Origin: a virus
Lineage: Duplodnaviria > Caudoviricetes
DNA length: 53,459 nucleotides
Strand: one strand, 5' to 3'
Virus record (IMG/VR): IMGVR_UViG_3300017987_000115
Coordinates: 1-53,459 of that record
Part shown: one piece after another, positions 1 through 32,666 of the stretch
How positions within the stretch are numbered: the first letter of the stretch is position 1
How the letters are laid out: each line of letters begins with the position of its first letter
The notes under the pieces: model-generated
What the model was told of the DNA's origin: nothing
Database searches by the model: none
What the model saw: only the letters and a program-made list of their open reading frames with translations
Translations under genes and position numbers: made by a program

Positions 1-131
1 CAAAAAAAGAAGAAAGAGATGCTTGGAGTATAAGTGAATTTTGTATGACGGTTGGCGGTACAAGTTTAGAAGAAATGGAATGTTTGTTTGCTAAAAAAGA
101 AAGCGTTGGAATGAAGAGGCCTTGGAGATGA
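1..131 (+). CDS. 3' end of an upstream gene (partial)
   Basis: Frame 3 is open from the window start to TGA 129-131, overlapping the next ATG (ATGA coupling). Confidence 0.45.
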   Translation, partial: KKEERDAWSISEFCMTVGGTSLEEMECLFAKKESVGMKRPWR

Positions 132-301
132 GACTCATAAAGCGAATGTACTTTAGAGGAAAACTAAATTTTCTAAGTAACTTTTACTATTCGCTTATAG
201 AACTTGAAGGACTTGTATATCCGTCTGTTGAAAACGCTTTTCAAGCAATGAAAGACGAAGGTATAAGAAAGTCTAAAAAGATTGTAAAGAGCGCTATGTA
301 A
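128..301 (+). pseudogene. N-terminal fragment of a NADAR (YbiA-like) protein, 57 aa
   Basis: Hand translation MRLIKRMYFRGKLNFLSNFYYSLIELEGLVYPSVENAFQAMK matches the NADAR FLSNF...YPSVEH-FQA-K N-terminus, then stops. Not in the ORF track. Confidence 0.7.
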
Positions 302-570
302 TGCGTTTCGTTATAAAGTGCAGGTGTGGACAGGTCTACTACTTAGGTGACAATGAAGACCTGCCCGACAATGCAATTGATATAGCAAAGCTTTTAAAGA
401 AAAATAAGAAGGTACGTGGGTTGGAAATATCAACTAGGAAAGGTTGGGGACGTTGGGGATCTTTTAGTTGCAAAAAATGTACACGCGTTATATCTTTGGA
501 ATACTCTATTCATACCAAAGGCTCTAAGTTAAAATTCAAAGGAAATTATCCTAAGAAATATGTAGTGTGA
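301..570 (+). CDS. hypothetical protein, Cys pairs (CRC...CKKC)
   Basis: ORF coupled to the upstream stop (TAATG). Confidence 0.65.
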   Translation: MRFVIKCRCGQVYYLGDNEDLPDNAIDIAKLLKKNKKVRGLEISTRKGWGRWGSFSCKKCTRVISLEYSIHTKGSKLKFKGNYPKKYVV

Positions 571-621
571 GATCCAAAAAAATGAGTCATTTTCCGTATA
601 GGTTTACGTGGAGGAAAAATT

Positions 622-966
622 ATGTTGTGGCATAAAACGTCTTGTGTGACATGGGAATGCAATTTAGGTATTCTGACTATAGGAATTATAGAGTACAATC
701 GAAAATCTTACAGTGGTTTATTTGAAGCTCTTCCCAACTCTGTAAAGTATAAAGATAGAACTTATTTCATGCATATGAAACTTGACAGCACGTTGAACCC
801 AACTTCTGGAATAAGATCTGATTATTTTAAGTCTTTAGATGCAGCAAAAACTTCTTCAGAAAAATGGGTCTTGCACTTCTATAATAAGTTCAGAAAGTTT
901 TTTGAAATAGCAAAGGTAATAGACGAGTCTAATAAAGAGGTTGGCATTGGAGATGTTACTCTATAG
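622..966 (+). CDS. hypothetical protein
   Basis: GGAGG SD upstream of ATG 622. Confidence 0.75.
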   Translation: MLWHKTSCVTWECNLGILTIGIIEYNRKSYSGLFEALPNSVKYKDRTYFMHMKLDSTLNPTSGIRSDYFKSLDAAKTSSEKWVLHFYNKFRKFFEIAKVIDESNKEVGIGDVTL

Positions 967-1002
967 TTAAACTAAAACTAATTACAAATTACAATTGGCT
1001 AG

Positions 1003-1600
1003 GTTCGTGCACTTTTAATTTTTAAAACGTGAAGGTTTTGTTGATTGAAATTCAGTTCATTGAAGTTCGTTTCAAAATTTTCCATCACTCAGTTCGTGCA
1101 TCCCTTAACGAAAAACGTAAAACTAAATTTGATTTGAAGACGAATGTGCGAATTTTTTTCATTTTGAATTCCCATTTTTGGCACAGTTTTGGCTACAATG
1201 CAAAACTGTGCCAACTGGCTGTAAGGTTTTTGAAAATTTGAATGCAAATTGGCACAGTTTTTGTTAAGAAATGACATTTCAAAAATGTCCAAAATGATAG
1301 CAAACAGTGTGCCAAAAGTGGCAAAAAATGGTGAAAATCGCTGGTTAAAGTTTGGCGTTGTGAAAACTGTCACAATTGGCCATTTTTGGCCCCATTTTTG
1401 CTTCTTGTGCCAGATTTCACAAGTGGGGCAAAATTGCCCGCAAACACGGGAAAGACAAATTCCGGAAATTGTCACAAAACATGCGGCGAAATTTCGCTGT
1501 CAATTTCGCATATTTTTGCACACCGATTTTCAAAAAAGCCCGTTAATTTACAAAAGAATTTGCAAAAATCTTCAAAAAACTGTTGTTTTTTGGCTGTTTT
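1003..1600. repeat. non-coding palindrome/inverted-repeat-rich block
   Basis: Perfect 14-bp IR TTGGCACAGTTTTG/CAAAACTGTGCCAA at 1178-1214, third arm copy at 1249-1261, GTTCGTGCA at 1003 and 1092, near-palindrome 1454-1473, palindrome GCGAAATTTCGC 1486-1497. Confidence 0.75.
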
Positions 1601-1611
1601 TGACACATAAT
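1583..1611 (+). promoter_or_regulatory. putative sigma70-type early promoter
   Basis: ctgTTGTTT-N17-CATAAT upstream of the first small gene; same ctgTTG context as the promoters at 31958 and 34616. Confidence 0.5.
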
Positions 1612-1665
1612 TAATATATGAAAACAACAAAAGCGCTGGAAAACAACAAAAAAGGAGACTGGAAA

Positions 1666-1800
1666 ATGGAAAACTGGACACGGGAAGAATTCGACAGGGC
1701 CATGGCAGAAGCGTGGGTGCGGGCTTTGGATTTTCAAAACAAAAAACGCGCCCAGGTTTTGGCCGTGGCGGTTCGGGAAAACACTGGAAAGGAAAATTGA
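1666..1800 (+). CDS. small early protein (44 aa)
   Basis: AAGGAG SD before ATG 1666 (MENWTREEFD...). Confidence 0.6.
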   Translation: MENWTREEFDRAMAEAWVRALDFQNKKRAQVLAVAVRENTGKEN

Positions 1801-1802
1801 AA

Positions 1803-2114
1803 ATGAAAATCGGGAACAGGAAAATTTTGGTGGCGCTGTTAAACAAAATGGCGCGTGTGTCTTTGGAACGGGACGACGAAAATTTCGTTGTGTCCGAACC
1901 AGCGCCCAACGGTGTTTCTGCTGCAGCAGGAAACATGTTTGAACCGGACAACAGCGAAACCATTCTTTTGGCCGTGTGTTGGAAAGATGGTTTTGTTGCG
2001 CTGTTGGAAAAGAAAAACAACAAATGGAAAGTTTGTTGCACAAAACAAAAAGAAGAATGGGAAACACAAAACGACGCTGTCCGAAATTGGATTGGCGAAA
2101 TTTTCTGCTGTTAA
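1803..2114 (+). CDS. early hypothetical protein
   Basis: Start follows the upstream stop; AAGGA SD. Confidence 0.7.
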   Translation: MKIGNRKILVALLNKMARVSLERDDENFVVSEPAPNGVSAAAGNMFEPDNSETILLAVCWKDGFVALLEKKNNKWKVCCTKQKEEWETQNDAVRNWIGEIFCC

Positions 2115-2134
2115 AATGAAACACAACAAAAACA

Positions 2135-2166
2135 AAAACAGGACCGGCCATGGGGCTGGTCCTGTT
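2135..2166 (+). terminator. GC-rich hairpin, possible terminator or processing site
   Basis: AAACAGGACCGGCC-ATGG-GGCTGGTCCTGTTT, intergenic. Confidence 0.55.
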
Positions 2167-2214
2167 TCAACTTTATATTTTGGTTTGGAAATAACAAAAC
2201 AGGAGAATGGAAAA

Positions 2215-2556
2215 ATGGAAAACGGGAAAACAAAGATTGGTGTGTTGAGAATTTTCAACAAACAGGACTGGTTCCAATACGAAGGCGCCACGGGCTGGGG
2301 CGACAGCGGGACATGGTGCGGAACAGGCGCGCCGTTTGTTGCAACACTGGCCGTGGGCGAAAGGGAAATGGAACTTTTGGTGGACAGCATGGGCGCCCAG
2401 CTGGTCTGGTGGAACGAAATAAAAGAAATTGAAACTGTTTGGGCAATTGACAAACCGGAATTCGAAAATCGGGAAACAGCTTTTGCAGTGGCCAGTGCGC
2501 TGTGTTGTTTCACCAGTGTTGTTGAATTTGAAAAGTTTGGTTTCGTGGAAATATAA
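2215..2556 (+). CDS. early hypothetical protein
   Basis: AGGAG SD; C-terminal part of track ORF 1855..2556. Confidence 0.7.
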   Translation: MENGKTKIGVLRIFNKQDWFQYEGATGWGDSGTWCGTGAPFVATLAVGEREMELLVDSMGAQLVWWNEIKEIETVWAIDKPEFENRETAFAVASALCCFTSVVEFEKFGFVEI

Positions 2557-2713
2557 AAATGAAACACAGCACACGGCCAGCCTGTTTGGTGGGCTGGCCG
2601 TGTGCCAGCAATTCTTTAATTATGATTTTACAAAATGAAATCAAACAACACAGCGGTGTTGAAAATATAAATCGGGAAAAGAAAATTAAAAAGAAAGATT
2701 GGAGAATGGTAAA
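2556..2713 (+). repeat. intergenic double-hairpin module, copy 1
   Basis: 14-bp stem 2569-2605, small stem 2646-2661, and a 32-bp block 2660-2691 identical to 3327-3358. Confidence 0.85.
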
Positions 2714-3214
2714 ATGAAAAAGACTGGAAAGATCGAAACGATGGTTGTTTGTTGGCAGTGTGTTCAATCGTCTGCGTGTGACCACCACACACGGCTTGGC
2801 CACAAAGAAATTTCAACCGCTTACATTGACATGGAACATGGACAGGGCAGCCTGGTGTGTAACAGCTGCGGCCGCAAAATTGAATTTGGCCATTTCATGG
2901 TGCAACAGTGGTTGCGAGATTCGAAAAAGAAATTGGTGTACAAAAGAAATTCCAACAAAACAAAAAGCCTGGTAAGTTACAACGGATATGAAATTTTGAA
3001 ACAGCACCATTTTGAAAAACAGGACAGCACTGGTCGAAACGGTGCCGTGTTGTTTATGGAATATAAAGACGGCGGAGGTTTAAAGTTTGTTACAGCGGTG
3101 TTGTACAGAACGGGCAACAAATGGGACACCAGTTGGCACCAGGGCAACTATTTTGACTGTGCTGAAGATGCGAAAGAAAATTTTGACAAGCGCGTGAAAG
3201 CAAAACGCTGGTAA
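2714..3214 (+). CDS. early protein with two CxxC motifs (Zn finger)
   Basis: GGAG SD; CWQC and CNSC. Confidence 0.75.
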   Translation: MKKTGKIETMVVCWQCVQSSACDHHTRLGHKEISTAYIDMEHGQGSLVCNSCGRKIEFGHFMVQQWLRDSKKKLVYKRNSNKTKSLVSYNGYEILKQHHFEKQDSTGRNGAVLFMEYKDGGGLKFVTAVLYRTGNKWDTSWHQGNYFDCAEDAKENFDKRVKAKRW

Positions 3215-3221
3215 GAAGAAA

Positions 3222-3368
3222 AAAAATGAAACAGAAGCGTGTGGCCAGTCTGCCCCAGGGACTGGCCCACGCCAGCAATTCTAAAACTATGATTTTTGAA
3301 AACGGAAAAACAAACACAGCTGGCTGTGAAAATATAAATCGGGAAAAGAAAATTAAAAGATTGGAGAA
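3222..3368 (+). repeat. intergenic double-hairpin module, copy 2
   Basis: Stem 3237-3272 with the same 9-nt loop length, small stem 3315-3328, and the identical 32-bp block. Confidence 0.85.
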
Positions 3369-3674
3369 ATGAAAATGTTAAAAGAACTTTCGAAAATGGA
3401 AGCCCATGAAGAACTTCGAAGGCTGTTGGCAGAAAACGCAATGGAAGATGCGCTGAAAGAAATTAACAATGCGCTGGAAGGAACGATTCGTGTTCAGCGT
3501 GAAATTTCCAGCGCACTGGAAAGAGCAAAAAGCGCAAAGCGTGTAAGCGAAATGGCAAATGTTGTTGATTCGCTTTTGATACAAATTCGCCAAACGCCTG
3601 GTTTGCTGAACAGCTGGAACTTGAATTGTGTTATGAGACGTCTTGACCAGAACAGTGGCGGAGAAGGAAAATGA
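3369..3674 (+). CDS. early helical hypothetical protein
   Basis: GGAG SD; coupled to the next gene (ATGA). Confidence 0.75.
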   Translation: MKMLKELSKMEAHEELRRLLAENAMEDALKEINNALEGTIRVQREISSALERAKSAKRVSEMANVVDSLLIQIRQTPGLLNSWNLNCVMRRLDQNSGGEGK

Positions 3675-3880
3675 AAAAGAAAATCAAAATCGGAAACAAG
3701 AAAATGGTGCGTGTGTTTGCTTGCATGGCAGACCAGTGTGACCAGTGCGAAAATCTTGGCCACGAATTTGGTACATATGACAGATGGGTTTGCAAACACA
3801 AACAGGGCAGGAAGCTTTTTGACAAACATGAAGATTTCGTTCGCTGCCCGTATTTCAAAAACGGTGAAAATGAAAAATGA
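3671..3880 (+). CDS. small Cys-rich early protein
   Basis: CDQC...C...CPYF; ATGA coupling on both sides. Confidence 0.7.
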   Translation: MKKKIKIGNKKMVRVFACMADQCDQCENLGHEFGTYDRWVCKHKQGRKLFDKHEDFVRCPYFKNGENEK

Positions 3881-4158
3881 AAACAGTCGTTGTTAAAAAG
3901 GAAAAGCTGCTGTTTATAAATGGTGGCTGGGTGGGGCGATTTGAAAATGGCACAATGGCAATTTCAGTTTTGCCAAACGGCCATTTTGTTGCCCAAGTTT
4001 CGGTTGGCCCATTTCTGGAAACACCAAGTTTAGAAGTGGGCGTGTACAGAACACTTTCAAAAGCTGTTGCTGAAAGCAAAACGAAAATTAAAACCATTTG
4101 GAATGAAAGAGTCCAAAATGCGAAAAGGCTTTTGAAAAAGAAAGGTGTTCGGAAATGA
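3877..4158 (+). CDS. early hypothetical protein
   Basis: ATGA coupling. Confidence 0.7.
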   Translation: MKTVVVKKEKLLFINGGWVGRFENGTMAISVLPNGHFVAQVSVGPFLETPSLEVGVYRTLSKAVAESKTKIKTIWNERVQNAKRLLKKKGVRK

Positions 4159-4688
4159 AAACAAAGAAAATTCTGAATGCCGTGCGCAACAAACAGCACG
4201 GCCAGTGGTTGGAACTAAAATGGGACACCATGGCTTTGTACTGGAACGAAAAGCTGGTGCTGTTAACCGTTCGTTTTCTTCGTTCGTTTTTGGCAAACCG
4301 AAACGGTACAACAGCGCGTGTGTTTACCATTTTCCAAAATCGCCTTTTGCTGAAAAATGAAAAGCGTTTTGAATGCAAGAAAATGCCAGATGCGGTTCGC
4401 AAAGCCAGGCACTGGGGCGAACACGTTTTGAAGAAAATGGAAAACGGTTTGGACGAAAAGGACACGGCAGTGGTGCGCACAGTTTGCACCAGAAATTGGA
4501 ACCGTGTTTCCACAAACGCATACCAGAGAAGCCGTGGCCCAAAGGACGCCACTGTTCAGTTTGAAAACGGAAATTGGTTTGCCACCATTGACAGCCACGA
4601 CGAAATGGTGGAAGCAAAAACGTTTGAAACTCTTGACCAGGCCCAGCGCTGGTGCGATGGGAAACTATATAACAGAAAAGGAGTTTGA
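4155..4688 (+). CDS. early hypothetical protein
   Basis: ATGA coupling; AAGGTG SD. Confidence 0.7.
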   Translation: MKTKKILNAVRNKQHGQWLELKWDTMALYWNEKLVLLTVRFLRSFLANRNGTTARVFTIFQNRLLLKNEKRFECKKMPDAVRKARHWGEHVLKKMENGLDEKDTAVVRTVCTRNWNRVSTNAYQRSRGPKDATVQFENGNWFATIDSHDEMVEAKTFETLDQAQRWCDGKLYNRKGV

Positions 4689-4690
4689 AA

Positions 4691-5062
4691 ATGCCAAGAC
4701 TGGAATGCCAAGAATGCGGAAAGGATTTTTGCAGTGGTTGCGTGGGGTGGAAAAACAACCAGTGCGGTGGTTGCGAAATGCAAATGCAAATGCTTTGCAG
4801 AGAATGTTTGTATGGCCAGGAACCGAATTGCCGGAAATGTGAATTCCTGGTGGTGGACAGCGAAACCGGATATGAAAGTTGCCGTGTGATGGAAGAAAGA
4901 AACCACATACTGCCAATGGAAGAAATGGAATTGCATTTCGAACTCGGTGGTGTTTACTGTCCTTCTTTCAAACAGGTGGTAGACGATCTTGAAAAAGAAG
5001 AAAGAGAATACTTCAAAGAGGAAAGGGAAAAACAGGAAAAAGAATCTCGGACTTCTGTTTAA
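4691..5062 (+). CDS. Cys-rich (multi-CxxC) Zn-binding early protein
   Basis: AAGGAG SD; CQEC, CSGC, CGGC, CREC, CRKC. Confidence 0.75.
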   Translation: MPRLECQECGKDFCSGCVGWKNNQCGGCEMQMQMLCRECLYGQEPNCRKCEFLVVDSETGYESCRVMEERNHILPMEEMELHFELGGVYCPSFKQVVDDLEKEEREYFKEEREKQEKESRTSV

Positions 5063-5070
5063 GAAAAGGA

Positions 5071-5108
5071 AGTTGGCCCATGCTGTTTTTGCGTGGGCCA
5101 ATTTTTTA
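5071..5108 (+). terminator. intrinsic terminator ending the early block
   Basis: TTGGCCCATGC...GCGTGGGCCAA followed by a T-run. Confidence 0.75.
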
Positions 5109-5192
5109 TGAAAAGAAAATTGAAAAACGGAAATATGAAATTGGATGAAATGAAAAGGAATATGATATGAAATGTAAAAGAAAGAGAATTGG

Positions 5193-5317
5193 TTAACTCA
5201 AATGTTCCCCCCCCTCCCTCTGTTTCTTTTTAATTTAATTACTTGTGATTACGTTTGAATTTTAAAAGAAAAGAAAGAGAAGGAAAGGGGGGGGAGGGGG
5301 GAGAAGTTTGAGTTGAA
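5193..5317. repeat. ~125 bp long-hairpin element A (paralog of 31573-31693)
   Basis: TTAACTCAAA...TTTGAGTTGAA termini, C-run/G-run arms, AT-rich centre. Confidence 0.65.
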
Positions 5318-5369
5318 GTTTAAGTGTGTGTTTTAAAAGAAATGAAAAGGAAAAAGAAAGGAAATGTAA

Positions 5370-5837
5370 ATGGTTACAAAGAAATTAAAAGTAAAAGTAA
5401 AAGTGAAAAGGAAAGTAAAAGGAAACAAGAAGAAAGTTAAAGGAAATAAGAAGAAACCAAATGCCGGTGGGCAAAGAACGAGAAACGATTTTAAAACTCG
5501 AAAGGAATGGAGAAGTTTCTGTAAAGGCAAGCGCATGGGGCGTAGAAGAAATGATATATTTTGGTATGGTTATAGACAAATCGGTGCGGCCATGGGTGTG
5601 GACGAACGAACACTGCGCCGTTGGATTTCTAAAGCGGGCATTTGTTTGCCAAGATGGTCTCCTGGCAAGACCGGGTCTGTGTTTCTTGGGAAGGCGCAGA
5701 TTCCGACATTGTTGGAAAGGTTGTTGCGGGCAAAAGTGATAAAACATATTGACACTTTGGAAAGGTTGTGTAAGATGGTAACATCGGCGAACACCACAAC
5801 ACTGGGCAGGTTTGAGAATCGCATGGACAGAAACTGA
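5370..5837 (+). CDS. HTH DNA-binding protein with Lys-rich N-terminus
   Basis: YRQIGAAMGVDERTLRRWI helix-turn-helix pattern. Confidence 0.75.
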   Translation: MVTKKLKVKVKVKRKVKGNKKKVKGNKKKPNAGGQRTRNDFKTRKEWRSFCKGKRMGRRRNDIFWYGYRQIGAAMGVDERTLRRWISKAGICLPRWSPGKTGSVFLGKAQIPTLLERLLRAKVIKHIDTLERLCKMVTSANTTTLGRFENRMDRN

Positions 5838-5838
5838 C

Positions 5839-6375
5839 ATGGGCAAGTACAGTATCGTTAAAGAAAATGTGGATGAAGATTTCATTCGCATGCCATGCCA
5901 GTTGCGCAAACGAATTGGAAAGTCGCAGAAAATAAAACTTACATGGCGCATGGTTCAAGAAGTGTTTCGTGTGTACGCACAGACACGCGATGTGCGACGC
6001 ACATGTAAGATATGCGGCATCACACGAACCAGATTTAATCGGCTGTGTGAGAAGCACAGGTGGGCGCAACGTTTGGAAGTTTTAGATTCGCGTGTGGCTG
6101 AACAGGCTGACATTTCATACGAACAGTTTACAAAACGGATTCTAAAAACATGCGCTGCTTTGTTGGATGGATATGACAATCAAATTCTTGAAGGAAAGCT
6201 TCCAAAACTTTCAGCAAAGGAATTAAAATTGTTGCAAGGTATTGTTGCCACCGGATTTGGAAAACCAACTGAACATACTGAACATGAACATAAAATCAAC
6301 AACATGTCAGACAAAGAACTTTTAGAAGAAGTGAAGAAGTTGAGATTGCAAATTGCTGGCGATGATATGGATTGA
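5839..6375 (+). CDS. putative terminase small subunit
   Basis: HTH-like VRRTCKICGITRTRFNRL; C-terminal NNMSDKELL; immediately upstream of terL. Confidence 0.6.
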   Translation: MGKYSIVKENVDEDFIRMPCQLRKRIGKSQKIKLTWRMVQEVFRVYAQTRDVRRTCKICGITRTRFNRLCEKHRWAQRLEVLDSRVAEQADISYEQFTKRILKTCAALLDGYDNQILEGKLPKLSAKELKLLQGIVATGFGKPTEHTEHEHKINNMSDKELLEEVKKLRLQIAGDDMD

Positions 6376-6489
6376 CATTTGGATAGTTTTATGAAACGTA
6401 TTTCATTTCACTCCCAGTTCACGAGGGGAATTCAACCCAAAAAAATCAATGTCAATGAATTGTCCAATTTTTTAAAATGTGCTTTTCCT

Positions 6490-6537
6490 GGGACCTCTTC
6501 ACAAAAATACATGGATTTTCGTCGCCGTCCCAAAATC
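6490..6537 (+). other. putative cos packaging site (cosQ-like plus cosN-like)
   Basis: 12-nt core CGTCGCCGTCCC (reverse strand GGGACGGCGACG, cf. lambda GGGCGGCGACCT) flanked by GATTTT/AAAATC; GGGACCT (cf. lambda cosQ GGGTCCT) about 18 bp upstream; terL is GpA-type. Confidence 0.6.
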
Positions 6538-6590
6538 ACTAATGAAATTACTAATTTCGGTGCATGCATGAATTTTGCTGGGTGTTTGTC

Positions 6591-8375
6591 ATGACGCTTC
6601 ACCTTAAATCCCAAAAGCGTCAGCATAAAAAGCTATTTCTGCCTCGTAAACCCAAACCCAAGCGTAATCTCCGTAACCCATTACTTTTAATTGATCCGAC
6701 CACGTTGAAACATGATCAGCTCATACGGTACACTTCACTACTTCGTGAACATCGTGAACGTCAGGTAGCCAAAAATATTAAACTCTGGGCTATGAACCGT
6801 CGTTCCAACATATCTGAAAAACGTATATATCAATTCGAACCTCGATATCCATATCTCTCAGATATTTACACAGACCGTCACCATCAGTTGGTAGTGAAAA
6901 AGTCCGCTCAGTGTGGAATGTCGGAGTTCATGGTCACACAGGGTATGTGGCTATGCGATCATATGGCTCTCACTGCCTTATACATATTCCCAACGGCAGG
7001 TACGATGCATGATTTCGTTCAGCAGCGAGTTGATCAGGCAATATTGGTATCACCATACTTGCAATCTCGAGTTGGATTCCCTAACAATGACTCTTCCAAA
7101 AAATTCTCACGTGGACTACTCGTCTTTCGAGGTGGCTCCGAAACAAAGCATGTTAAATCAGTGGACGCTGATGCCGTATTCCTTGATGAGGTCGACGAAA
7201 TCGATCCCGAGATCGTATCATTAGCAGAACGTCGCGTAGGTGCCTCGTCTCTTAAGTGGCTTCGAAAGGTCTCAACTCCCTCTTTTCCAGATATGGGAGT
7301 TGATGCCGAGTTCCAAAACTCCACACAGTGTGAGTGGTTTATACGATGTCCCCATTGCTCCACTTTGCAACATATGGTCGGTGACCGTCTCATCAGTGAT
7401 GATCCTCGCCATCCTACCCCATACGTACAGTGCGAGAATCCACGCTGTCACCGACCTCTTAATCGTTTCGCCAAGGGCACTTGGGTTCCTGCTCAACGGG
7501 ACCCAACACTGCCGCATGGTTACCATATATCCAAACTTTTCTCCCCTGATTCTACACTGGAAGAGTTGGTCGCTGCATCCTTACAACTCGAGGAGTACAA
7601 ACGACAAACATATTATAACCAGGATCTGGGAGAAACATACACACCAAAGGGAGCTCGTCTTGACGAGGACATTCTCAATGAGTGCTGTATGCGTGGGTAT
7701 AAACTGTCAGGACGTTTAGATAAGCTTGCTTTCCAAACTCCTGGCCGAATATTCTTGGGAGCTGACGTAGGAACACCGCTGATTCATGTGAGGATATCCG
7801 TCTACTCCCAAGACTTCGAATCTAAACGAGCTCTGCACATTGGAACAGTTCGCTCTTTCCAAGAGCTCACAATCCTTTATAAGAAGTATCGGTGCACAGC
7901 TGGAGTAATAGACGCTCATCCAGAAAAACGGAAGGCTAGAGCTTGGGCTCAGAAGGTACCACACCGTCGGTTTGTTGCGTTGTTCATTGAAAGAGAAAAC
8001 GACGTTAAACCAGTTACAGTTCATCCTAAAGAAAATAGGGTTGATATAAATCGTTCGATGGTCATGGACACAATGACTGTTAGGTATATGTCAAAAAGGG
8101 TCGTCTTGCCTATAGACGCAAAACATATAAAAGGCTTCTACGCTCAGATGAAGTCTCCAGCTCGTGTTAACCGTTTAAACAAAGACGGTGAGACAATTTC
8201 AAAGTGGATTAGAACCAACAAGATCGACCACTACGCAATGGCTGAATGTTACGAAGAGTCTGCAGCCGAAATGGTCAAGCAAAAACTTATCTCAGGCCGC
8301 GATGCGGTCACAAACTCAACACTGTTGGAGCAGATGTTCCAGACTATGGGTAAGAGGGAATTTGAACATGCCTAA
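6591..8375 (+). CDS. terL: terminase large subunit, lambda GpA family
   Basis: VKKSAQCGMSE Walker A, FLDEVDE Walker B, VSTP, CPHC Zn motif, GADVG nuclease motif. Confidence 0.93.
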   Translation: MTLHLKSQKRQHKKLFLPRKPKPKRNLRNPLLLIDPTTLKHDQLIRYTSLLREHRERQVAKNIKLWAMNRRSNISEKRIYQFEPRYPYLSDIYTDRHHQLVVKKSAQCGMSEFMVTQGMWLCDHMALTALYIFPTAGTMHDFVQQRVDQAILVSPYLQSRVGFPNNDSSKKFSRGLLVFRGGSETKHVKSVDADAVFLDEVDEIDPEIVSLAERRVGASSLKWLRKVSTPSFPDMGVDAEFQNSTQCEWFIRCPHCSTLQHMVGDRLISDDPRHPTPYVQCENPRCHRPLNRFAKGTWVPAQRDPTLPHGYHISKLFSPDSTLEELVAASLQLEEYKRQTYYNQDLGETYTPKGARLDEDILNECCMRGYKLSGRLDKLAFQTPGRIFLGADVGTPLIHVRISVYSQDFESKRALHIGTVRSFQELTILYKKYRCTAGVIDAHPEKRKARAWAQKVPHRRFVALFIERENDVKPVTVHPKENRVDINRSMVMDTMTVRYMSKRVVLPIDAKHIKGFYAQMKSPARVNRLNKDGETISKWIRTNKIDHYAMAECYEESAAEMVKQKLISGRDAVTNSTLLEQMFQTMGKREFEHA

Positions 8376-11109
8376 AACAAGTAGAGTTCCGGGGTCGATG
8401 GCTCCGCTAAAGAATCCAATGCTCAACCGTGAGACAGCAATTTATTCTCTCGAGATATGGGACCTAAACAAACTCACGCCCTACAATCCCGACTCTCTGG
8501 TGCGAAAGAAGGGCATGCCTGTCTACCGTGAGATGGTGCAACGTGACGATGCCGTTAAGAGTGCACTGTTTACAAAGAAAGCCTCGCGTATGGCATCGGG
8601 CTGGGATTACTTGCCTCCAGACCCTGACGTTGAACCTCGTGGCGAGGAAATGGTCGCTTTTATAAAGCACAATTTCGAATGGATGAAAGGTACAGACTCT
8701 CAGATGATCTGGGATGTCATGGGTGCATTCGAATTTGGCTTTTCTGTTCTGGAAGAAAACTGGGCTGTTATAAAAGACGGTTCAAAATGGGAAGGAAAGA
8801 TCGGGACGTGGTCCATTAAGTCAAAAGACTCTGCCGACTTTGATCCTAAGATTGACGAATATGGTAATATGACTGGGATCATTCAAGGAAAAGGCACACA
8901 GTATCACCGAGACCTTGACGTTGAGAAGTTTATGTACCATGTAAACTTCTTTGAACGTGGGAACTATTACGGAAATAGCGACCTGCGTCCTGCGTATCGT
9001 CCTTATTATGTTAAGGATATGCTTACACGGTTCATGGGTATCTACTTTGAGAAGTATGCCATGCCGATCGCCATTGGAAAGTATCCTGTAGATCTCGTAT
9101 CTTCCGAAGAACCCAAGAGCGAGGGACAAGGTACAAAGAGTATGGCCGAGGCAGAGCGGGAACGTTTTGAGAAGGTACTCAAAAAGATCGCTACTGCAAC
9201 TGCGATGGTTATACCCAGCGACTATGAAGTTGACTTTGCGGAGTCACGTGGCCGTGGTGAGTCTGGATACTTAAACGCTTTTCGATATTTGGATATTGCG
9301 ATTGCACGAGCGATCTTGCTTCCTGCGCTTGTTACAGGGACGTCTGATACTGGTAAAGGAACGTTGGCTCAGTCACGTACTCACCAAGAGAGTTTCATGA
9401 ATGTGGTCATGATGCTTGCAGATCCTATCGAGACTACAATCAACGAGCAACTAATAAGAAAGCTTATAGATATTAATTTTGATAAACCAAAAGCTTACCC
9501 AAAGTTTAAATTCCGTGACTACGACAAGCAGATCTCGCAAAGGGTAGTTGACATATTTGATAAGTTAATTGCACGAGGTGTCTTGGATGAGTCAGACGCC
9601 AAATGGATTAGAAACCAAATCGGACTTCCTGAAAGACCGGAAGACGCTCCGCCTCCTAACTTCAGGTCTAGAGGCGAGTATGGTCCAGTGTCGACATCTG
9701 GAGGAGAGATCCTCGCTCCGGGTGGAGCTCCTGCAAAAGCTCCTACTCCCAGGCCTCGTCGGACCAAGAGAAGTTCTCCTGCGAAAGAGAAAGAAGAGTT
9801 CGCAGAAACATTAGGTAGAAATAACGGTCCGTATTCTGCAGGTCCTGGAGGAAAGTGCAAGTGCACAAAATGCGGGTATGAAATGTCCCATGATGCAGGT
9901 ACACCATGCACAAAGTTGAAGTGTCCGAAGTGTGGAGGTAAGATGCTTCGGAGCTCTCAATTCTCAGAGCAGCACTGCGATAGCATTGTAACTCTCGAAA
10001 GAGAGGAAGGATGTTATCCTGAAACACGTTCGTTCCTGGAAAACTCCGTTGCTGCCATGATGGAAGCAGAGTGTCCTCCTGAAGACTGGCCTGGAAAGAT
10101 GAATGCAACAGACTACATAGTTCATATCAATGATATATTTGAGTTTGCTGAAAAGACTGGACGAAAGTCAGATGCTGAACGGTTTAAAGCAGACTTAAAT
10201 ATGAAGCCAAGTCGTAAACTTAGTACACCTGAGAAGCGTGTTGATTACAACGGTATTCAAGCTTCGTGGCGTGCACTTATTGAACAGACTTTGGCTACAA
10301 TGACTAACAACATGGCACTTCTAAAAGATCAGATGCTTCCAAAGGTGAGGTCTTTGTATGAGAGAGGCGACGATCAAGCGTTTGATAGTTTGCAAGTTCC
10401 TTCAAAACCGATCTCTACGTTTAAGAATGCAGTAAATCAAATGTTTCTGACAGACTTTGTTCTTGGCTATAATAACTCTATCCAAGAGGTTGAAAAAGCA
10501 ACGGGCAAGGATCTTTCACAGTTTGCGGAGGTCGATGGAATACTCGCAGATCCGGCCGAAGCTCTTCAAGCTCTAACTCTCAAACGTCCTCGTCTTCGCA
10601 GGTTCCTGAAAACTTATTCCAGACGTTCCTTCACCATAGCTGGTGTTGAGAGAGCGAGGATTTTAAATGAGGCAAGACGGGTACTTGAAATCGGAGTTCA
10701 AAGAGGCTACTCTACTGACAGGGTCGTCCGTGAACTTGGAGCAGTGCTTGACAAATATACAGACCGACTTGTCAAGGGAGAGGTCGTCAAGCCAGGACGC
10801 CTTCAAACAATCGTACGTACTAATCTTAGTGAAGCGTTTAATACCGCCAGGCGTATGGCATTCGAAGACCCTGCGATATACCCTTATATAGGAGCGTATC
10901 AATATTCAGCTGTCATAGATCGAAAGACAACTGAGATATGCTTGGATTATGACGGTACGACTCGTCCAACCGATGACGCGATCTGGGATGTCATCTGGCC
11001 ACCTAATCACTTCTCATGTCGTTCAATGGTAGTGGCTTGGATGGAGGACGAGAACTTCACGTTTACAGATTATCCAACGTTGCCTCCACAGGAGGGTTTT
11101 GGAGTATGA
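8368..11109 (+). CDS. portal protein (Mu gp29/DUF935-like) fused to a Zn ribbon and a Mu gpF-like head morphogenesis domain
   Basis: FEFGFSVLE, EKYAMPIAIGKYP, TLAQSRTHQE portal motifs; C-terminal RLQTIVRTN...YSAVID...PPNHFSCRS gpF motif. Confidence 0.88.
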   Translation: MPKTSRVPGSMAPLKNPMLNRETAIYSLEIWDLNKLTPYNPDSLVRKKGMPVYREMVQRDDAVKSALFTKKASRMASGWDYLPPDPDVEPRGEEMVAFIKHNFEWMKGTDSQMIWDVMGAFEFGFSVLEENWAVIKDGSKWEGKIGTWSIKSKDSADFDPKIDEYGNMTGIIQGKGTQYHRDLDVEKFMYHVNFFERGNYYGNSDLRPAYRPYYVKDMLTRFMGIYFEKYAMPIAIGKYPVDLVSSEEPKSEGQGTKSMAEAERERFEKVLKKIATATAMVIPSDYEVDFAESRGRGESGYLNAFRYLDIAIARAILLPALVTGTSDTGKGTLAQSRTHQESFMNVVMMLADPIETTINEQLIRKLIDINFDKPKAYPKFKFRDYDKQISQRVVDIFDKLIARGVLDESDAKWIRNQIGLPERPEDAPPPNFRSRGEYGPVSTSGGEILAPGGAPAKAPTPRPRRTKRSSPAKEKEEFAETLGRNNGPYSAGPGGKCKCTKCGYEMSHDAGTPCTKLKCPKCGGKMLRSSQFSEQHCDSIVTLEREEGCYPETRSFLENSVAAMMEAECPPEDWPGKMNATDYIVHINDIFEFAEKTGRKSDAERFKADLNMKPSRKLSTPEKRVDYNGIQASWRALIEQTLATMTNNMALLKDQMLPKVRSLYERGDDQAFDSLQVPSKPISTFKNAVNQMFLTDFVLGYNNSIQEVEKATGKDLSQFAEVDGILADPAEALQALTLKRPRLRRFLKTYSRRSFTIAGVERARILNEARRVLEIGVQRGYSTDRVVRELGAVLDKYTDRLVKGEVVKPGRLQTIVRTNLSEAFNTARRMAFEDPAIYPYIGAYQYSAVIDRKTTEICLDYDGTTRPTDDAIWDVIWPPNHFSCRSMVVAWMEDENFTFTDYPTLPPQEGFGV

Positions 11110-12895: not shown

Positions 12896-13264
12896 ATGCC
12901 GAGAATTCCTGGCATTACTACGAAGACCGAAGTTCACGGTGCGTGGGTTGTGCAGGACCACGTCGCAGCGAAGGACGTCGTGCTCATTGGCGACGATACT
13001 ATCTGCGGCACGGACGCTCTTCCCTCGGGCCTTGTGCTCGGACAGATCACCGCTTCTGGCAAATACGGTCCGTATGATGATGGTGCCTCTGACGGTCGCG
13101 AAGATGCGGCAGGTATCATGGTCACGGACTCTGTGTTTGCTGCCACAGCGAACGGTGATCAACTTATCAGCATGGCTGTGCATGCGGTTTGCAAGGAAAG
13201 TGGACTGACAGGTATTAATGCCAATGGCAAGACGGACCTGGCTGCTCACTTTGTCTTCGTGTAA
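12896..13264 (+). CDS. head decoration protein (lambda gpD-like)
   Basis: GLVLGQITASGKYGPYDDGASDG motif; directly upstream of the MCP. Confidence 0.85.
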   Translation: MPRIPGITTKTEVHGAWVVQDHVAAKDVVLIGDDTICGTDALPSGLVLGQITASGKYGPYDDGASDGREDAAGIMVTDSVFAATANGDQLISMAVHAVCKESGLTGINANGKTDLAAHFVFV

Positions 13265-13283
13265 GAAAGGACGGTAGAGTAAG

Positions 13284-14297
13284 ATGGACGACAGAGTTCT
13301 TCAACACACCGTCCTGACTGCGATGGTGGAGAAGTTTCCCCCTCAGGAAATGATGGGTATGGCCATGGCTCCTCGCAAGGCCACCAGCAAGATCAAAGGG
13401 GAAGTGGCGAAGTGGGACGTAAAACGTCGTGGTCGTGACATGGCCACACTGAACACTCCCGGAAGCCCGTCAAAGAAACGTGCCAATATGGTGCATGAGA
13501 CCAAAACGTCTTCGTTTGCGTACATGCGTGAATCGAAGATGGTCACTGCAGAGACCATGTGGTGGCTTCGTGAGGCAGGCAAAGATTTCGTCCAGGCAGG
13601 CGAAAAACGAGTCATGGAAGAGATGGAAGATCTCAATGGCTTTATTGATCGTCGGATGGAGTGGATGATCTGGCAGATGTTCACAGGTGAAATGAAGTAT
13701 GACGTTGATGACGTTACAGACGCTGTTGACGTTGATTATGGAATTCCCTCGGCAAACAAACCAACTGCTGGTACTGACTGGGATGACTTTGCCAATGCAA
13801 CCATCCTGGCCAATCTTCGTGCATGGAAGCGTCTGATTACCCGTGGCGCAAACATGAAACCGACGGATTTGTACATGACAGAGGTCGTGCACAATTTCAT
13901 GATTTCAAACGACGAGATCATTGCCCTTCTTCAAAATACGAAGGGTGACAATATTGTATCCGACGGAGTCATCAAGCGTATCCAGGGCATGAACGTCAAC
14001 GTGTACGACAGTGGTTGGGTTGACGAGTCGACCGGAACATACTATCCGTACATTTCTGACAAGCATATCATCATGCTTGCAAAAGGAAATCCGACTCCCG
14101 GTGGAAAAGCTACAAATGGTCTTTGGGACATTCTCGAAGGTCCGGCACTTGATGTCAAGGCTCGTGGCCGTCCTGGAAAGTTCTCCAAGTCCTGGGAGGA
14201 AGAAGACCCGTCCGGAACGCAGGCTTTGATCGACTGGTACGCACTGCCGGTACTGTACTATCCGGAAGCGGTCGTGTACGCAAGGGTTGATACCTAA
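13284..14297 (+). CDS. major capsid protein (lambda gpE-like)
   Basis: RRMEWM..Q, VDYGIPS, KSWEEEDPSG...ALPVL motifs; 337 aa. Confidence 0.9.
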   Translation: MDDRVLQHTVLTAMVEKFPPQEMMGMAMAPRKATSKIKGEVAKWDVKRRGRDMATLNTPGSPSKKRANMVHETKTSSFAYMRESKMVTAETMWWLREAGKDFVQAGEKRVMEEMEDLNGFIDRRMEWMIWQMFTGEMKYDVDDVTDAVDVDYGIPSANKPTAGTDWDDFANATILANLRAWKRLITRGANMKPTDLYMTEVVHNFMISNDEIIALLQNTKGDNIVSDGVIKRIQGMNVNVYDSGWVDESTGTYYPYISDKHIIMLAKGNPTPGGKATNGLWDILEGPALDVKARGRPGKFSKSWEEEDPSGTQALIDWYALPVLYYPEAVVYARVDT

Positions 14298-16269: not shown

Positions 16270-17853
16270 ATGGCTGATAAATACGTTGATAATGTACTTG
16301 GTAATGATTCACCTAATACAGGCGGGTCAAGCGATCCGTACAAGACCATCGGGAAGGCCCTTTCCTCTGGTGGAGGTCTGACAGCAGGGGATACGTGTTA
16401 CATCAAGGACAACAGCCCGACGAACCCTTACCTGCTCGTAACAGACGAGAGCAGTGAAATCGAGGTACAGGTCAGCGGCACTTCTGGAAACCGCATAACG
16501 ATCAGGCCGTGGGATGACGGGGACACGATCGTCATCGACACGGAGGACCCCGACAACACGAAAGTATTCGACCTGAACGGCAACGACTATCTTGATTTTT
16601 ACGACATCGAGATCGACGGAAGCAGTCAGTCGGTGAATCAGATTGAAATGTGTTTTGACGTGAACGAGTGCAGTTATATCGGAATATACCGGTGCAACAT
16701 GCACGACATCGACCTAAGTAGTGAAGCCATAGGTCTGAACAATACAGGACAGACGCCACCGGCAAACAACATCGACGTCAATGACTGCGCATTTGCAGAC
16801 ATCGCAGACAGCGTGTCGTCATCGTCAGAGTGCATCGCCATAGGCGGGTGCGACGTCAACAACGTGAACATCAAGCGGTGTACATTTTCCGGGACCGTCG
16901 ACGAAGGAATCAAAACACAGTGGCAAGATGAAAACTCTGACATCAACACGATACTCATTGAGGCATGCACGTTTGACAGCACGGTTTCCGGAATCGACGT
17001 TGCCGTCAAACAAGCTCGTGACGTGATTGTACGTGAATGCTATTTTTCATCGTCCACAGACGAGGCAATCCAGCTAAACGGATCGGTGAATGTGACAATA
17101 GAGGACTGTGCATTTTTTGCCACGAAGTCTACGTCGATCAATTTCTTAGGCGCGACATTCGGTGCCAAGACGTTCAGGAATAGCAACGTTATCATTCAGA
17201 GAAACAAGTTCAAGAAAATCAATTTATCAGGATTGTCATGGCAACGTGCAATCTACATACGATGGGTCGACGACTCAGAGGGACCGATCAAAATCCTGAA
17301 CAATACGTTCCACGACGTCGTGAAAATAACTAGTGGTGGTGACGCCATTAATCTTAGACTCGAATTTGACGGGACTGTGATGTCGCAATGCGACGGAGAC
17401 GTTGTGGTCGATATTTACAACAACATTTTCACCGACTGCGACGGATATGCAATAGCGCATCAGGCCAGCGGTGACCCGACAAGTTATGGTGACAGCGTTA
17501 CTGTCAACAACGGGAACAACTGCTATAACAACAACACCGATGGAGACAGAGAAGGTTCTGTGCCGACTGGCTGGACATGGGCCAACAACGGAACGGAACC
17601 CGGTGAGGTTTCAGCGGACCCGAAGTTTATTGACGACGCAAGTGACGATGTTCGCAACCTGAGACTTCGTCACAGTTCGCCTTGCATTCGTGCAGGTGAC
17701 TTCACAAAGCTCGCTTCACGCCATGGCGGTCAAGCTGACATTGGTGGATGGGAGTACGGAGCTCCTATTGGTAAACGTCTTCAGCGTGGCAAGTATTACA
17801 GCGGTCCAACAAACGTCTCAGAGCTATTTGAGCTTGTGAGGATGGAGATTTAA
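16270..17853 (+). CDS. right-handed parallel beta-helix protein (pectate-lyase-like, possible depolymerase or adhesin)
   Basis: YVD..GND...PYKTIGKA...AGDT.YI N-terminus; repeated N-V/I-x-I-x-x-C-x-F rungs; DPKF...LRL..SPCI.AG...DIG C-terminus. Confidence 0.8.
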   Translation: MADKYVDNVLGNDSPNTGGSSDPYKTIGKALSSGGGLTAGDTCYIKDNSPTNPYLLVTDESSEIEVQVSGTSGNRITIRPWDDGDTIVIDTEDPDNTKVFDLNGNDYLDFYDIEIDGSSQSVNQIEMCFDVNECSYIGIYRCNMHDIDLSSEAIGLNNTGQTPPANNIDVNDCAFADIADSVSSSSECIAIGGCDVNNVNIKRCTFSGTVDEGIKTQWQDENSDINTILIEACTFDSTVSGIDVAVKQARDVIVRECYFSSSTDEAIQLNGSVNVTIEDCAFFATKSTSINFLGATFGAKTFRNSNVIIQRNKFKKINLSGLSWQRAIYIRWVDDSEGPIKILNNTFHDVVKITSGGDAINLRLEFDGTVMSQCDGDVVVDIYNNIFTDCDGYAIAHQASGDPTSYGDSVTVNNGNNCYNNNTDGDREGSVPTGWTWANNGTEPGEVSADPKFIDDASDDVRNLRLRHSSPCIRAGDFTKLASRHGGQADIGGWEYGAPIGKRLQRGKYYSGPTNVSELFELVRMEI

Positions 17854-22679: not shown

Positions 22680-23105
22680 ATGTCCGATGGATTGTTACTC
22701 CTGGCAAAGGACGGTCGGTACGACGACGCCGACCTGGTGCGGACTGACTTCCGTATCAAACGTGGCACGAGACGACGTGCTGAGGAAAATGACGACGACC
22801 CAGTTGTCATTACGATTTGGCTCAAACCTTTGAGCGGTGCCCAACTTCGAAAGATTTTTGATCGTTCATTGATTGAAGTGAAGAAGGGCAAAAAGACCAA
22901 GCACAAAATCAGTGCTGGAGCCTTTACAGTGGACCAAGTGGCTCTGACCATTGCAAAATGGGAAGGAGTTCTTGACCCTGAAAACGGAGAGCCTGCAAAA
23001 GTGAGTGAAGAAAACGTTGATCGTCTTCCTGGATGGATTATCAACAAGCTTCAGAAAAAAGCAAGTGAAATGAATGAGCTCTCGGAGGAAGACGAGGGAA
23101 ATTAG
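22680..23105 (+). CDS. tail assembly chaperone (gpG-like)
   Basis: Lies between tube and tape measure; ends in slippery G GGA AAT. Confidence 0.8.
   Translation: MSDGLLLLAKDGRYDDADLVRTDFRIKRGTRRRAEENDDDPVVITIWLKPLSGAQLRKIFDRSLIEVKKGKKTKHKISAGAFTVDQVALTIAKWEGVLDPENGEPAKVSEENVDRLPGWIINKLQKKASEMNELSEEDEGN
23096..23102 (+). promoter_or_regulatory. -1 programmed ribosomal frameshift site
   Basis: X XXY YYZ heptamer GGGAAAT just before TAG; the -1 frame is open to 23443. Confidence 0.85.
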
Positions 23106-32132: not shown

Positions 32133-32666
32133 ATGGTAAAGAAGAAAAGCAAGGGTGACAAAAGTAAAAAGTCTGTGAATGAAAAAAAGAAGTCGCAGGT
32201 TGAAAGGCTGAAAGCTCAAAAGGAAAAACTGGAGAATCGGATTGCTCCGGTCCAGGAAAGAGCTGACACACAGTTCGACAAGTTCATGGAAGTGCTTGGA
32301 AAGTCTGAAGTGAGACTTCTCAAGCACGCCATGTATTTAGAAAAGCACGAAGGTGAGGAAGACGAACGTTCTGAAAAGAAGCTCATTTCTTTCCACCGTA
32401 TCCGTGAAAGGGCCGATCGGATATTCGAGCGTTTTGTCAGGGTTGACAATCGGTTGGATAAGTACCGTGCCAAGCTTGAAGTGATTGACTCCAAGCTCGA
32501 AAAACTTCGGATCGGAAAAGCCCGTGTCTGGGTGCGGTGCGGAAACAACTCTGCGAACTGCCGTTCCATCAACTGCGCTCGTGACGTTGCGGCCATGATG
32601 CGTGCCAATGGCGACGACGTTGAAATCGTCGTGACCGACCGGGCAGTGAAACAGCTCGGTGAATAG
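32133..32666 (+). CDS. coiled-coil basic hypothetical protein
   Basis: GAGGTG SD; heptad-rich sequence. Confidence 0.75.
   Translation: MVKKKSKGDKSKKSVNEKKKSQVERLKAQKEKLENRIAPVQERADTQFDKFMEVLGKSEVRLLKHAMYLEKHEGEEDERSEKKLISFHRIRERADRIFERFVRVDNRLDKYRAKLEVIDSKLEKLRIGKARVWVRCGNNSANCRSINCARDVAAMMRANGDDVEIVVTDRAVKQLGE

Follow-up and report, generated by a model that had tools for sequence, protein, structure and literature searches.

Why should some 5.5 kb of a phage genome, lying just upstream of the large terminase gene, be nearly emptied of a few of the shortest DNA words? The question is raised by IMG/VR record IMGVR_UViG_3300017987_000115, a 53,459-bp contig that was analysed over its whole length (the window, positions 1 to 53,459). 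The virus is a tailed phage, also described here as an uncultured marine/sediment siphovirus, and all its genes lie on the plus strand. From position 1020 to about 6500, where terL begins shortly afterwards, the dinucleotide TA and the trinucleotides GAG, CTC, TAG and CTA are scarce. We call the strongly purged part of this stretch, up to about 5 kb, the block; it holds a non-coding leader and nine small genes numbered g1 to g9, and is followed by a weaker tail with g10 and g11 (Table 1). Here, we show that the depletion is real, far beyond chance and unusual in degree, and we weigh what could have caused it.

Extent of the word loss and its action on duplex DNA

Between 1020 and 4900, TA occurs 76 times where base composition predicts 310.7, an observed/expected ratio (O/E) of 0.24 as against 0.70 in the rest of the genome; GAG occurs 14 times, CTC and TAG twice each, and CTA 7 times. 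A preliminary description, made from the letters alone, had drawn attention to several intervals here, and its counts are reproduced. Positions 1620-2111 contain a single TA (34.6 expected from base composition), one GAG and no CTC; 1841-2111 contain no TA (20.5 expected), no GAG and no CTC; and 2221-2550 contain two TA with 20.7 expected. The gradient that it reported is also found. In 500-bp bins, TA O/E is 0.81-0.85 before position 1000, 0.17-0.40 at 1001-5000, 0.38-0.51 at 5001-6500 and 0.61-0.82 in terL. The left edge is sharp, with TA O/E dropping from 0.85 to 0.20 at position 1000 in the same bins, and the cumulative likelihood ratio turns at ~1010-1030.

The composition of the block sets it apart in other respects as well. 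Its strand-symmetrised (Karlin) dinucleotide distance from the rest of the genome is 272-278, while other 4-kb windows (n=85) have a mean distance of 59.6 (sd 23.0) and a maximum of 116.1. The steps TA, AG/CT and GA/TC are depleted, and AA/TT, TG/CA and GC are enriched. Measured against these dinucleotide frequencies, no trinucleotide falls as far short as GAG (16 vs 42.6 expected) and none is in such excess as CAG (82 vs 40.0), such that GA persists mainly as GAA/TTC and AG mainly as CAG/CTG. Stop codons summed over six frames are roughly halved (46.3 per kb in the block vs 86.0 elsewhere). The pile-up of shadow open reading frames (ORFs) that the preliminary description had attributed to the purge is confirmed: at 9.65 per kb, ORFs of at least 60 aa are 2.5-fold as frequent in the block as elsewhere (3.80 per kb).

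Two resampling controls on the nine block genes indicate that the depletion is not an artefact of codon or amino-acid usage. When the amino acids are kept and codons are drawn from late-gene usage, 142.6 +/- 8.0 TA, 66.3 GAG, 24.7 CTC, 30.9 TAG and 26.3 CTA are expected, and 50, 13, 3, 2 and 3, respectively, are observed. When the block's own codon usage is kept and synonymous codons are permuted, 95.2 +/- 5.2 TA are expected, and 0 of 1000 permutations are as low as the 50 observed; at codon junctions, 13 TA are found where 58.2 are expected. The depletion persists after both controls in all nine genes. The first outcome that the preliminary description had named as a refutation, disappearance of the signal after such normalisation, is thus not seen. 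Glutamate is encoded by GAA and GAG at 96:1 in the block and at 61:39 in late genes. Amino-acid usage is itself bent away from residues that need the avoided steps and towards those supplied by favoured ones: relative to late genes, Tyr (0.52), Ile (0.53), Asp (0.62) and Ser (0.66) are rarer and Pro is also down, while Cys (2.98) and Trp (1.74) are commoner and Asn, Glu and Gln are also up. Just one of the 16 GAGs in 1020-5062 is a GAG codon. Six of the 16 are part of a GGAG located 5-12 nt before a start codon, so the surviving GAGs are, as had been suspected, partly Shine-Dalgarno sites.

Both strands are affected alike. After the amino-acid control, log-ratios of words and of their reverse complements correlate with r = 0.87 (32 pairs), and CTC, CTA, CCT, GTC, ATC and TCT on the coding strand are depleted as strongly as their complements (z -3.2 to -5.5). 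The leader is likewise poor in TA (Table 1) and contains no GAG and one CTC; its ORFs 1029-1241 and 1249-1614 show no frame preference. Because of this strand symmetry, and because the purge extends to the non-coding leader, we conclude that the constraint acts on duplex DNA and not on the messenger strand. Surviving non-coding TAs cluster in repeated spacers and just before g1, in -10-like boxes that may belong to promoters; a candidate promoter at the end of the leader contains 3 of the leader's 15 remaining TAs.

Gene-by-gene resampling, which gives observed/expected ratios for TA and for GAG+CTC, reveals two overlapping signals. All nine block genes are low in both, with ratios of 0.00-0.48 for TA and 0.00-0.32 for GAG+CTC. 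The preliminary description had treated the loss of TA as a property of this end of the genome. TA loss is strongest in the block but not exclusive to it, as TA avoidance of similar strength occurs in five distant genes: the major head gene (0.45), 16270-17853 (0.55), 22680-23105 (0.33), 32133-32666 (0.33) and a gene at 46130-47080 (0.25) for a protein like single-stranded DNA-binding protein (SSB) with domain DUF669. The head decoration gene has a TA ratio of 0.55. At codon junctions, the five TA-poor late genes have 43 TA where 142.1 are expected. Their GAG+CTC ratios are ordinary (0.70-1.36), and GTC, GAC and TCG, avoided in the block, are enriched there. TA avoidance in this phage is thus graded, probably tracking expression or some general property of DNA. 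What is unique to 1020-~6400 is the purge of GAG/CTC and of other mixed-purine words, which stops at terL. The head decoration, major head, SSB-like and three other genes with this TA avoidance lie at 12896-14297, 16270-17853, 22680-23105, 32133-32666 and 46130-47080. Nowhere in the genome is there a longer stretch free of TA than the 461 nt at 46533-46994.

Explanations for the purge

We tentatively favour, at something below an even chance, the idea that 1020 to ~6500 is a leading immediate-early module whose naked DNA has been purged of short words because it must act unprotected. The module would consist of the palindrome-rich leader, the nine small ORFan genes with their repeated regulatory spacers and two genes of helix-turn-helix type, and would lie directly against a probable packaging cut site. 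Region-specific selection on the double helix would remove TA and mixed purine steps, sparing GAA/TTC and CAG/CTG and hitting GAG/CTC hardest. Words would be lost from synonymous sites, codon junctions and non-coding DNA, with protein composition bent to fit, and would be retained where they are needed, namely in Shine-Dalgarno GGAG, stop codons, Tyr codons and -10-like boxes. Because such a stretch would have to work as naked DNA before any phage protein exists, as T5 first-step-transfer DNA does, short words usable by the host's DNA-recognising immunity or silencing proteins would be costly here and nowhere else. We infer that this end enters first, that host defence is the selecting force and that the genes are early. 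The preliminary description had proposed much the same, namely that the first-injected DNA is cleared of host-defence targets or of contexts that the phage hypermodifies. Its proposal stands insofar as the purge acts on DNA, is not an artefact and is bounded by terL; it finds no support as regards DarT targets, palindromes, the exclusivity of TA loss or a modification enzyme, none having been found in the genes scanned.

Is this stretch close to a genome end? The preliminary description had supposed that a cohesive-end (cos) site might lie at 6520. The GAG/CTC purge does stop in the intergenic region that contains the best lambda-cos-like 12-mer, and TerL has the domains of lambda GpA, although the site itself is a candidate cos only (candidate A in Table 1). 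Compared with the opening 12 nt of the lambda record, this 12-mer scores best in the whole contig (10 positions match, with 1 gap, on the opposite strand, a score reached by 1 of 248 windows); it is also the most GC-rich 12-mer of the pre-terL spacer. Candidate B lies further upstream, in the spacer 5063-5369, possibly a packaging or regulatory site. Its tracts, 8C-T-3C and 8G-A-6G, are ~65 nt apart, and the G-tract at 5287-5303 is the most GC-rich 12-mer of that spacer, which also carries 25-33-nt direct repeats and, just before g10, two copies of an 11-nt word. With either candidate as the cut, no more than a few hundred to 1,500 bases would separate the strongly purged block from a genome end, which in the lambda scheme would be the last to be packaged and the first to be ejected. 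In its ATPase part, TerL is similar to SPO1 TerL (E 2.8e-29). SPO1 is a phage with long terminal repeats. Because of this resemblance the packaging mode is not certain. No terminal repeat was found between the ends of the whole contig. Contig word depth is 15.8 and 20.8 inside the block and 14.2 beyond it, which is not 2-fold, and contig depths from metagenomes are no proof either way on a terminal repeat. Contig breaks at ~5263-5310 were considered as genome ends and set aside, as they coincide with a masked low-complexity tract.

That first-entering DNA can carry its own bounded signature is seen in T5, as measured here on its first-step-transfer DNA (1-9140 of NC_005859). In 2-kb bins, the distance to the rest of that genome is 162-240 inside the segment and 17-98 outside. 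The parallels with T5 and other tequintaviruses are several: a bounded stretch of ~8-10% of the genome with small genes mostly of unknown function, an extensive non-coding region at the inner edge in which repeats and palindromes abound, and an oligonucleotide signature of its own (distance 180 in T5 vs 272-278 here). AG/CT (0.79 vs 1.11 in the rest of T5) and GA/TC (0.77 vs 0.98) are depleted in both phages, GAG and CTC are about halved in T5, and GC is raised (1.57 vs 1.11). GCGC per kb is 7- to 9-fold above the rest of the genome (5.80 vs 0.83 in T5; 6.6 vs 0.7 here, in coding DNA). CGCG in T5 positions 1-10219 stands at 2.95 vs 0.60 per kb. There are also differences. The segment of T5 is repeated directly at the genome ends over 10 kb and no such repeat is evident here, the TerL is unrelated (no match in T5), and Pfam and PHROGs searches of the block ORFs found no homologues of the pre-early genes A1, A2 or dmp. 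In T5 an injection stop signal is annotated at the inner edge; the leader occupies the same position here, a resemblance only. Our literature search found no description of a compositional peculiarity of T5 pre-early DNA, and no report of a TA-purged phage early region.

Published work lends support to the idea that sites in leading DNA are the ones that matter for restriction. Restriction of T5-like phages is reported to act on sites in the leading DNA only (PMC10644984), and in Murciavirus (Autographiviridae) the loss of a motif from the first-injected region is reported to allow escape from a Type I system (PMC12455610). As described there, selection on words in Murciavirus acts in the leading region alone and leaves them in place in the rest of the genome (PMC12455610), as is also the pattern here; it differs in that a single bipartite motif is lost there, whereas here whole di- and trinucleotide classes are affected over 4 to 5.5 kb.

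A number of observations weigh against the idea of a leading module cleared of host targets. Restriction-modification half-sites were among the targets suggested in the preliminary description, but avoidance of Type II palindromes as a class is not borne out, as 6-bp palindromes number 66 with 61.0 expected. The block does resemble classical restriction-site avoidance in that CTAG (0 vs 14.0), GATC (2 vs 14.0), ACGT, TATA and GTAC are low. It differs in that the avoidance is not genome-wide, 6-mers are at expectation, and GCGC (20 vs 7.5, O/E 2.67), GGCC (22 vs 7.5, O/E 2.93) and AATT are enriched; since GCGC and GGCC are avoided or near par in the rest of the genome, their enrichment would be odd if the host restricts them. 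Outside the block (6591-53459), O/E is 0.32 for GCGC, the opposite of the block, 0.27 for CGCG and 0.25 for CTAG. DarT targets the words TNTC and TTTW. Neither is depleted (O/E 1.31 and 2.03, compared with 1.13 and 1.15 in the rest), contrary to what the preliminary description had suggested. Common protospacer-adjacent motifs (PAMs) of CRISPR systems are AAG, TTC, CC, NGG and TTTV. These are not avoided as a group either (AAG 0.83, TTC 1.72, CCN/NGG 1.05, TTTV 2.24), and among the PAM-type words tested only AGG (0.41), GAG and TAG are low.

The comparisons with other phages also include points on the negative side. The 3-mer shifts of T5 and of the block correlate with r = 0.49, which shares places five to seven among 364 control windows; this is unexceptional, a value of 0.4 being reached by 7.7% of the controls. 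TA is not lost in T5 (0.99 vs 0.95), where the GAA:GAG ratio is also unchanged. The SPO1 terminal repeat with its host-takeover module (distance 40) and T7 class I (distance 55) resemble the block as small early-gene clusters at the first-expressed end, but neither has a regional signature. Among relatives by TerL, a scan with the single protein retrieved one distant locus and a 6-sequence alignment 178 loci (179 in all), of which 120 of at least 6 kb were measured and 59 shorter ones were left out. None of the 120, which share only ~30% TerL identity, has a block with a comparable purge of TA or GAG/CTC. Positions 1-3000 of one locus (L179) reach a distance above 200, but G+C shifts there from 0.60 to 0.51 with no TA purge, and this is probably a mosaic joint. 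TA loss alone is no mark of a leading end, given TA avoidance of equal strength elsewhere in the genome. The public runs, stored as contigs, show no starts or ends that would place the termini or the order of entry. Finally, the contig probably lacks ~9 kb, because ORFs run off both its ends (1-301 and 52681-53459) and an identical TerL is on record on a 62.6-kb contig.

What else might produce such a pattern? The block may be a strongly expressed early operon in which TA (UA in RNA) is avoided for RNA stability or for efficient transcription or translation, and GAG/AGG are avoided as Shine-Dalgarno-like words. In our judgment this is unlikely. Synonymous and junction TA avoidance is indeed strong in the head, decoration and SSB-like genes (0.25-0.55), a correlation (r = 0.52) links the block's 3-mer shifts to those of the TA-poor late genes, and the strong purge runs from the candidate promoter region to the terminator-like hairpin at 5073-5107. 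Moreover, GGAG is found 7 times on both strands with 27.0 expected, and 6 plus-strand copies are true ribosome-binding sites. A cause at the RNA level, however, gives no reason to expect that CTC, CTA, CCT, GTC, ATC and TCT on the coding strand are as depleted as their complements; the purge is just as strong in the leader, ahead of the candidate promoter; and in the TA-poor late genes GAG+CTC is normal, with GTC, GAC and TCG enriched. Optimised expression accounts for TA, but not for the strand-symmetric words or the leader. Alternatively, the phage itself may modify or cut DNA at short words of TA or GAG type, and the block may be kept free of them for host RNA polymerase or regulators, or so that its own host-DNA-degrading nuclease spares it. 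There are reported precedents: thymine hypermodification is dinucleotide-specific, at TG, in Acinetobacter phage 15599 (PMC13458397), and T5 first-entering DNA has been proposed to lack sites of that phage's own A1-linked nuclease (bioRxiv 10.1101/866236). Context-specific hypermodification shares the di- and trinucleotide-level specificity seen here and could make a word-free zone useful. The phage encodes a ThyX-like protein and a MazG-like/HAD fusion, many ORFs of its nucleotide module have no known family or function, and ~9 kb of the genome probably lies outside the contig. Unlike hypermodified phages, though, it has no recognised modification genes in the ~55 ORFs scanned with Pfam or PHROGs, where no hydroxymethylase, kinase, glycosyl- or methyl-transferase, DpdA, Que gene or such nuclease was found. 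We regard self-avoidance as quite unlikely.

More doubtful still is a recent import, in which a cassette from a donor with this signature has not yet drifted towards the rest of the genome and its composition has no function here. A dinucleotide distance of 278 is as large as that between unrelated organisms, GCGC, CGCG and GGCC are used in the opposite way to the remaining genome, the nine genes are without exception ORFans, and phage early regions are described as mosaic and highly variable (PMC12455610). Yet neither donor nor homologue emerged from a megablast of 1000-6600 against 50,697 phage records (no match), a scan for an exact 22-mer of the repeated spacer in viral contigs (0 found), or two protein searches. 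At 42% GC, the TA O/E of 0.24 is below the whole-locus value of all 120 TerL-relative loci (0.43-0.78), and across >15,000 bacterial genomes TpA abundance is reported to follow G+C closely (PMC11282364). Over g10-g11 the signal weakens by degrees, and it stops at a functional landmark; moreover, T5 shows that a regional signature can be a stable, lineage-wide property. At the other extreme, the idea of a leading module may be carried further. This phage, unrelated to T5, might have a T5-like two-step entry in which the ~5.5-kb terminal segment enters alone and pauses at the leader. The reduced DNA vocabulary would then be a general stealth code against many defences and silencers, and the T5 signature would be a milder case of the same undescribed principle. 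This last proposal is speculative and we hold it to be rather improbable.

Features of the block and of the phage

Table 1. Coordinates of features in and around the purged stretch (window positions; TA and GAG+CTC as observed/expected counts, or as ratios where a single decimal value or range is given)
Feature	Position	Strand	TA	GAG+CTC	Description
Left boundary spacer	967-1019	.	7/7.2		53 nt after the stop codon of ORF 622-966; TA normal
Non-coding leader	1020-1617	.	15/63.3		598 bp; poor in TA, GAG and CTC, dense in palindromes
Candidate sigma-70-type promoter	1590-1617	+			TTGGCT, 16 nt, TAATAT; read by eye, missed by consensus scan; putative
g1	1618-1800	+	0/6.2	1/6.9	Small ORFan; start may be ATG at 1666, after GGAG
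g2	1803-2114	+	2/12.8	0/9.3	ORFan, 103 aa; frame is the best late-gene codon-position fit
g3	2215-2556	+	4/13.3	1/12.1	ORFan, 113 aa; GGAG 12 nt upstream of start
Intergenic unit 1	2557-2713	+	7/14.3		Terminator-like hairpin 2593-2609, T-rich tail, -10-like TATGAT, 32-nt exact repeat 2660-2691 (families D1, D9)
g4	2714-3214	+	14/29.6		166 aa; CxxC pairs and small C-terminal domain
Intergenic unit 2	3215-3368	+	5/11.3		Paralogue of unit 1 (families D1, D9); 32-nt repeat 3327-3358
g5, g6, g7, g8, g9	3369-3674, 3671-3880, 3877-4158, 4155-4688, 4691-5062	+	0.29-0.48	0.00-0.32	Tightly packed ORFans, three joined by ATGA overlaps
Terminator-like hairpin	5073-5107	+			8-bp stem, 13-nt loop, T6 tail; ends the strongly purged block; omitted by the scan (loop >8 nt)
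cos candidate B	5207-5303	.			C-tract 5207-5222 and G-tract 5287-5303 able to pair, flanked by direct repeats (families D6, D10, D11); putative function
g10	5370-5837	+	0.70	0.47	Weak helix-turn-helix; HTH_28 and HTH_23 below Pfam cut-offs
g11	5839-6375	+	0.61	0.14	In weaker tail of the signature
cos candidate A	6520-6531	-			GC-rich 12-mer, site named in the preliminary description; 60 nt before terL
terL	6591-8375	+	0.94	1.28	GpA-type large terminase; Pfam PF05876 and PF20454, precomputed domains on the window's own TerL

The leader is predicted to fold far more stably than shuffled versions of itself. Its folding z-score is -3.66 (none of the 20 shuffles, 0 of 20, reached its stability), and z is -2.3 to -4.6 in 7 of the 8 windows from 1020 to 2620. 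A ~12-nt motif repeats in both, alternating orientations at ~1180-1315, along with several short perfect palindromes.

Downstream of the leader, the nine plus-strand ORFs of the block have Shine-Dalgarno sites, three pairs of them are joined by ATGA overlaps, and the annotated frame is the one closest to the codon-position profile of late genes in 8 of the 9. The two intergenic units, which are probably terminator-promoter cassettes within the early block, each contain a ribosome-binding site in addition to the hairpin, T-rich tail, -10-like box and repeat. Ten ORFs were submitted to Pfam and PHROGs, g10 being the tenth, and no family was found for g1 to g9. No paralogy among the block proteins was detected below E 0.04. 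For g4, the sole non-self match below 1e-5 among 1.84 billion representatives is a weak one, to an 81-aa protein (36% identical over residues 89-162, 74 residues, E 2.9e-6), and an Atlas structure search with g4 gave scores of at most 0.81 and a template modelling (TM) score of at most 0.45. For g8, no relative was found among 5.8 billion proteins. Its single-sequence model has a mean predicted local distance difference test (pLDDT) score of 46.8 and is confident only at residues 120-177 (pLDDT 74-84), which form a four-strand sheet and a helix. The best fold matches (Z <=7.7, viral E >=0.011), among them AP2-like (Z 5.3-6.4) and DUF1508-like (viral E ~0.03), are too weak to name a fold. By eye, patterns like that of g8 residues 120-177 close g2, g3, g4 and g7. 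Beyond the block, g10 and g11 are possibly a small terminase or regulators; a PDB sequence search with both returned nothing below E 0.1.

A G/T-rich 7-mer occurs at 1851, 3190 and 4314, on the plus strand of the block only and nowhere else on either strand of the contig. Similar N-terminal coding segments hold the copies at 1851 (in g2) and 4314 (in g8) as well as a related 7-mer at ~3709 (in g6). The orientation would suit a Chi-like role; with three copies, and these within similar N-terminal coding segments, we make no such claim.

Elsewhere, the window encodes a portal, a protease/scaffold, head decoration and major head proteins, a tape measure and an amidase. Its replication and nucleotide module comprises a helicase, ligase, exonuclease, MazG-like/HAD fusion, ThyX(-like) protein, AAA_24 and DUF669 proteins, family-A polymerase and primase. 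Searches for RNA genes returned 0 Rfam families and 0 tRNAs (ARAGORN). At the left end, ORF 122-301 (59 aa) matches the first third of phrog_1017 (170 positions, unknown function; E 1.1e-7) and looks truncated or frameshifted, and one public-run contig terminates exactly at window position 1.

The nearest TerL relatives are ~33% identical, and many of them are in metagenome-assembled genomes of Chloroflexota. DNA of the phage is present in 7 public runs from 5 studies (sediment and seawater metagenomes), all stored as contigs; four of them may be the source of the window, and none of the listed runs is an RNA run. Contigs of the four runs compared match the window except for one base difference at 11211, a few small deletions in single contigs and two doubtful joints, and contain no usable variation.

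Possible meaning for leading phage DNA

Leading phage DNA is already known as the vulnerable part of the genome, but only with regard to single restriction motifs. In the present phage, entire classes of dinucleotides have been rewritten over 4 to 5.5 kb, whether by selection or by another force acting on the region, and so strongly that protein composition is shifted and GAG remains almost exclusively in ribosome-binding sites. Should the phage's own chemistry be the cause, what the block marks is a new modification or nuclease with context specificity. Should host immunity or silencing be the cause, the purged words would read out what the host's first-line DNA sensors recognise, and leading ends and immediate-early modules of uncultured phages could be located from sequence alone. 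For scans of this kind, the T5 measurement suggests a positive control.

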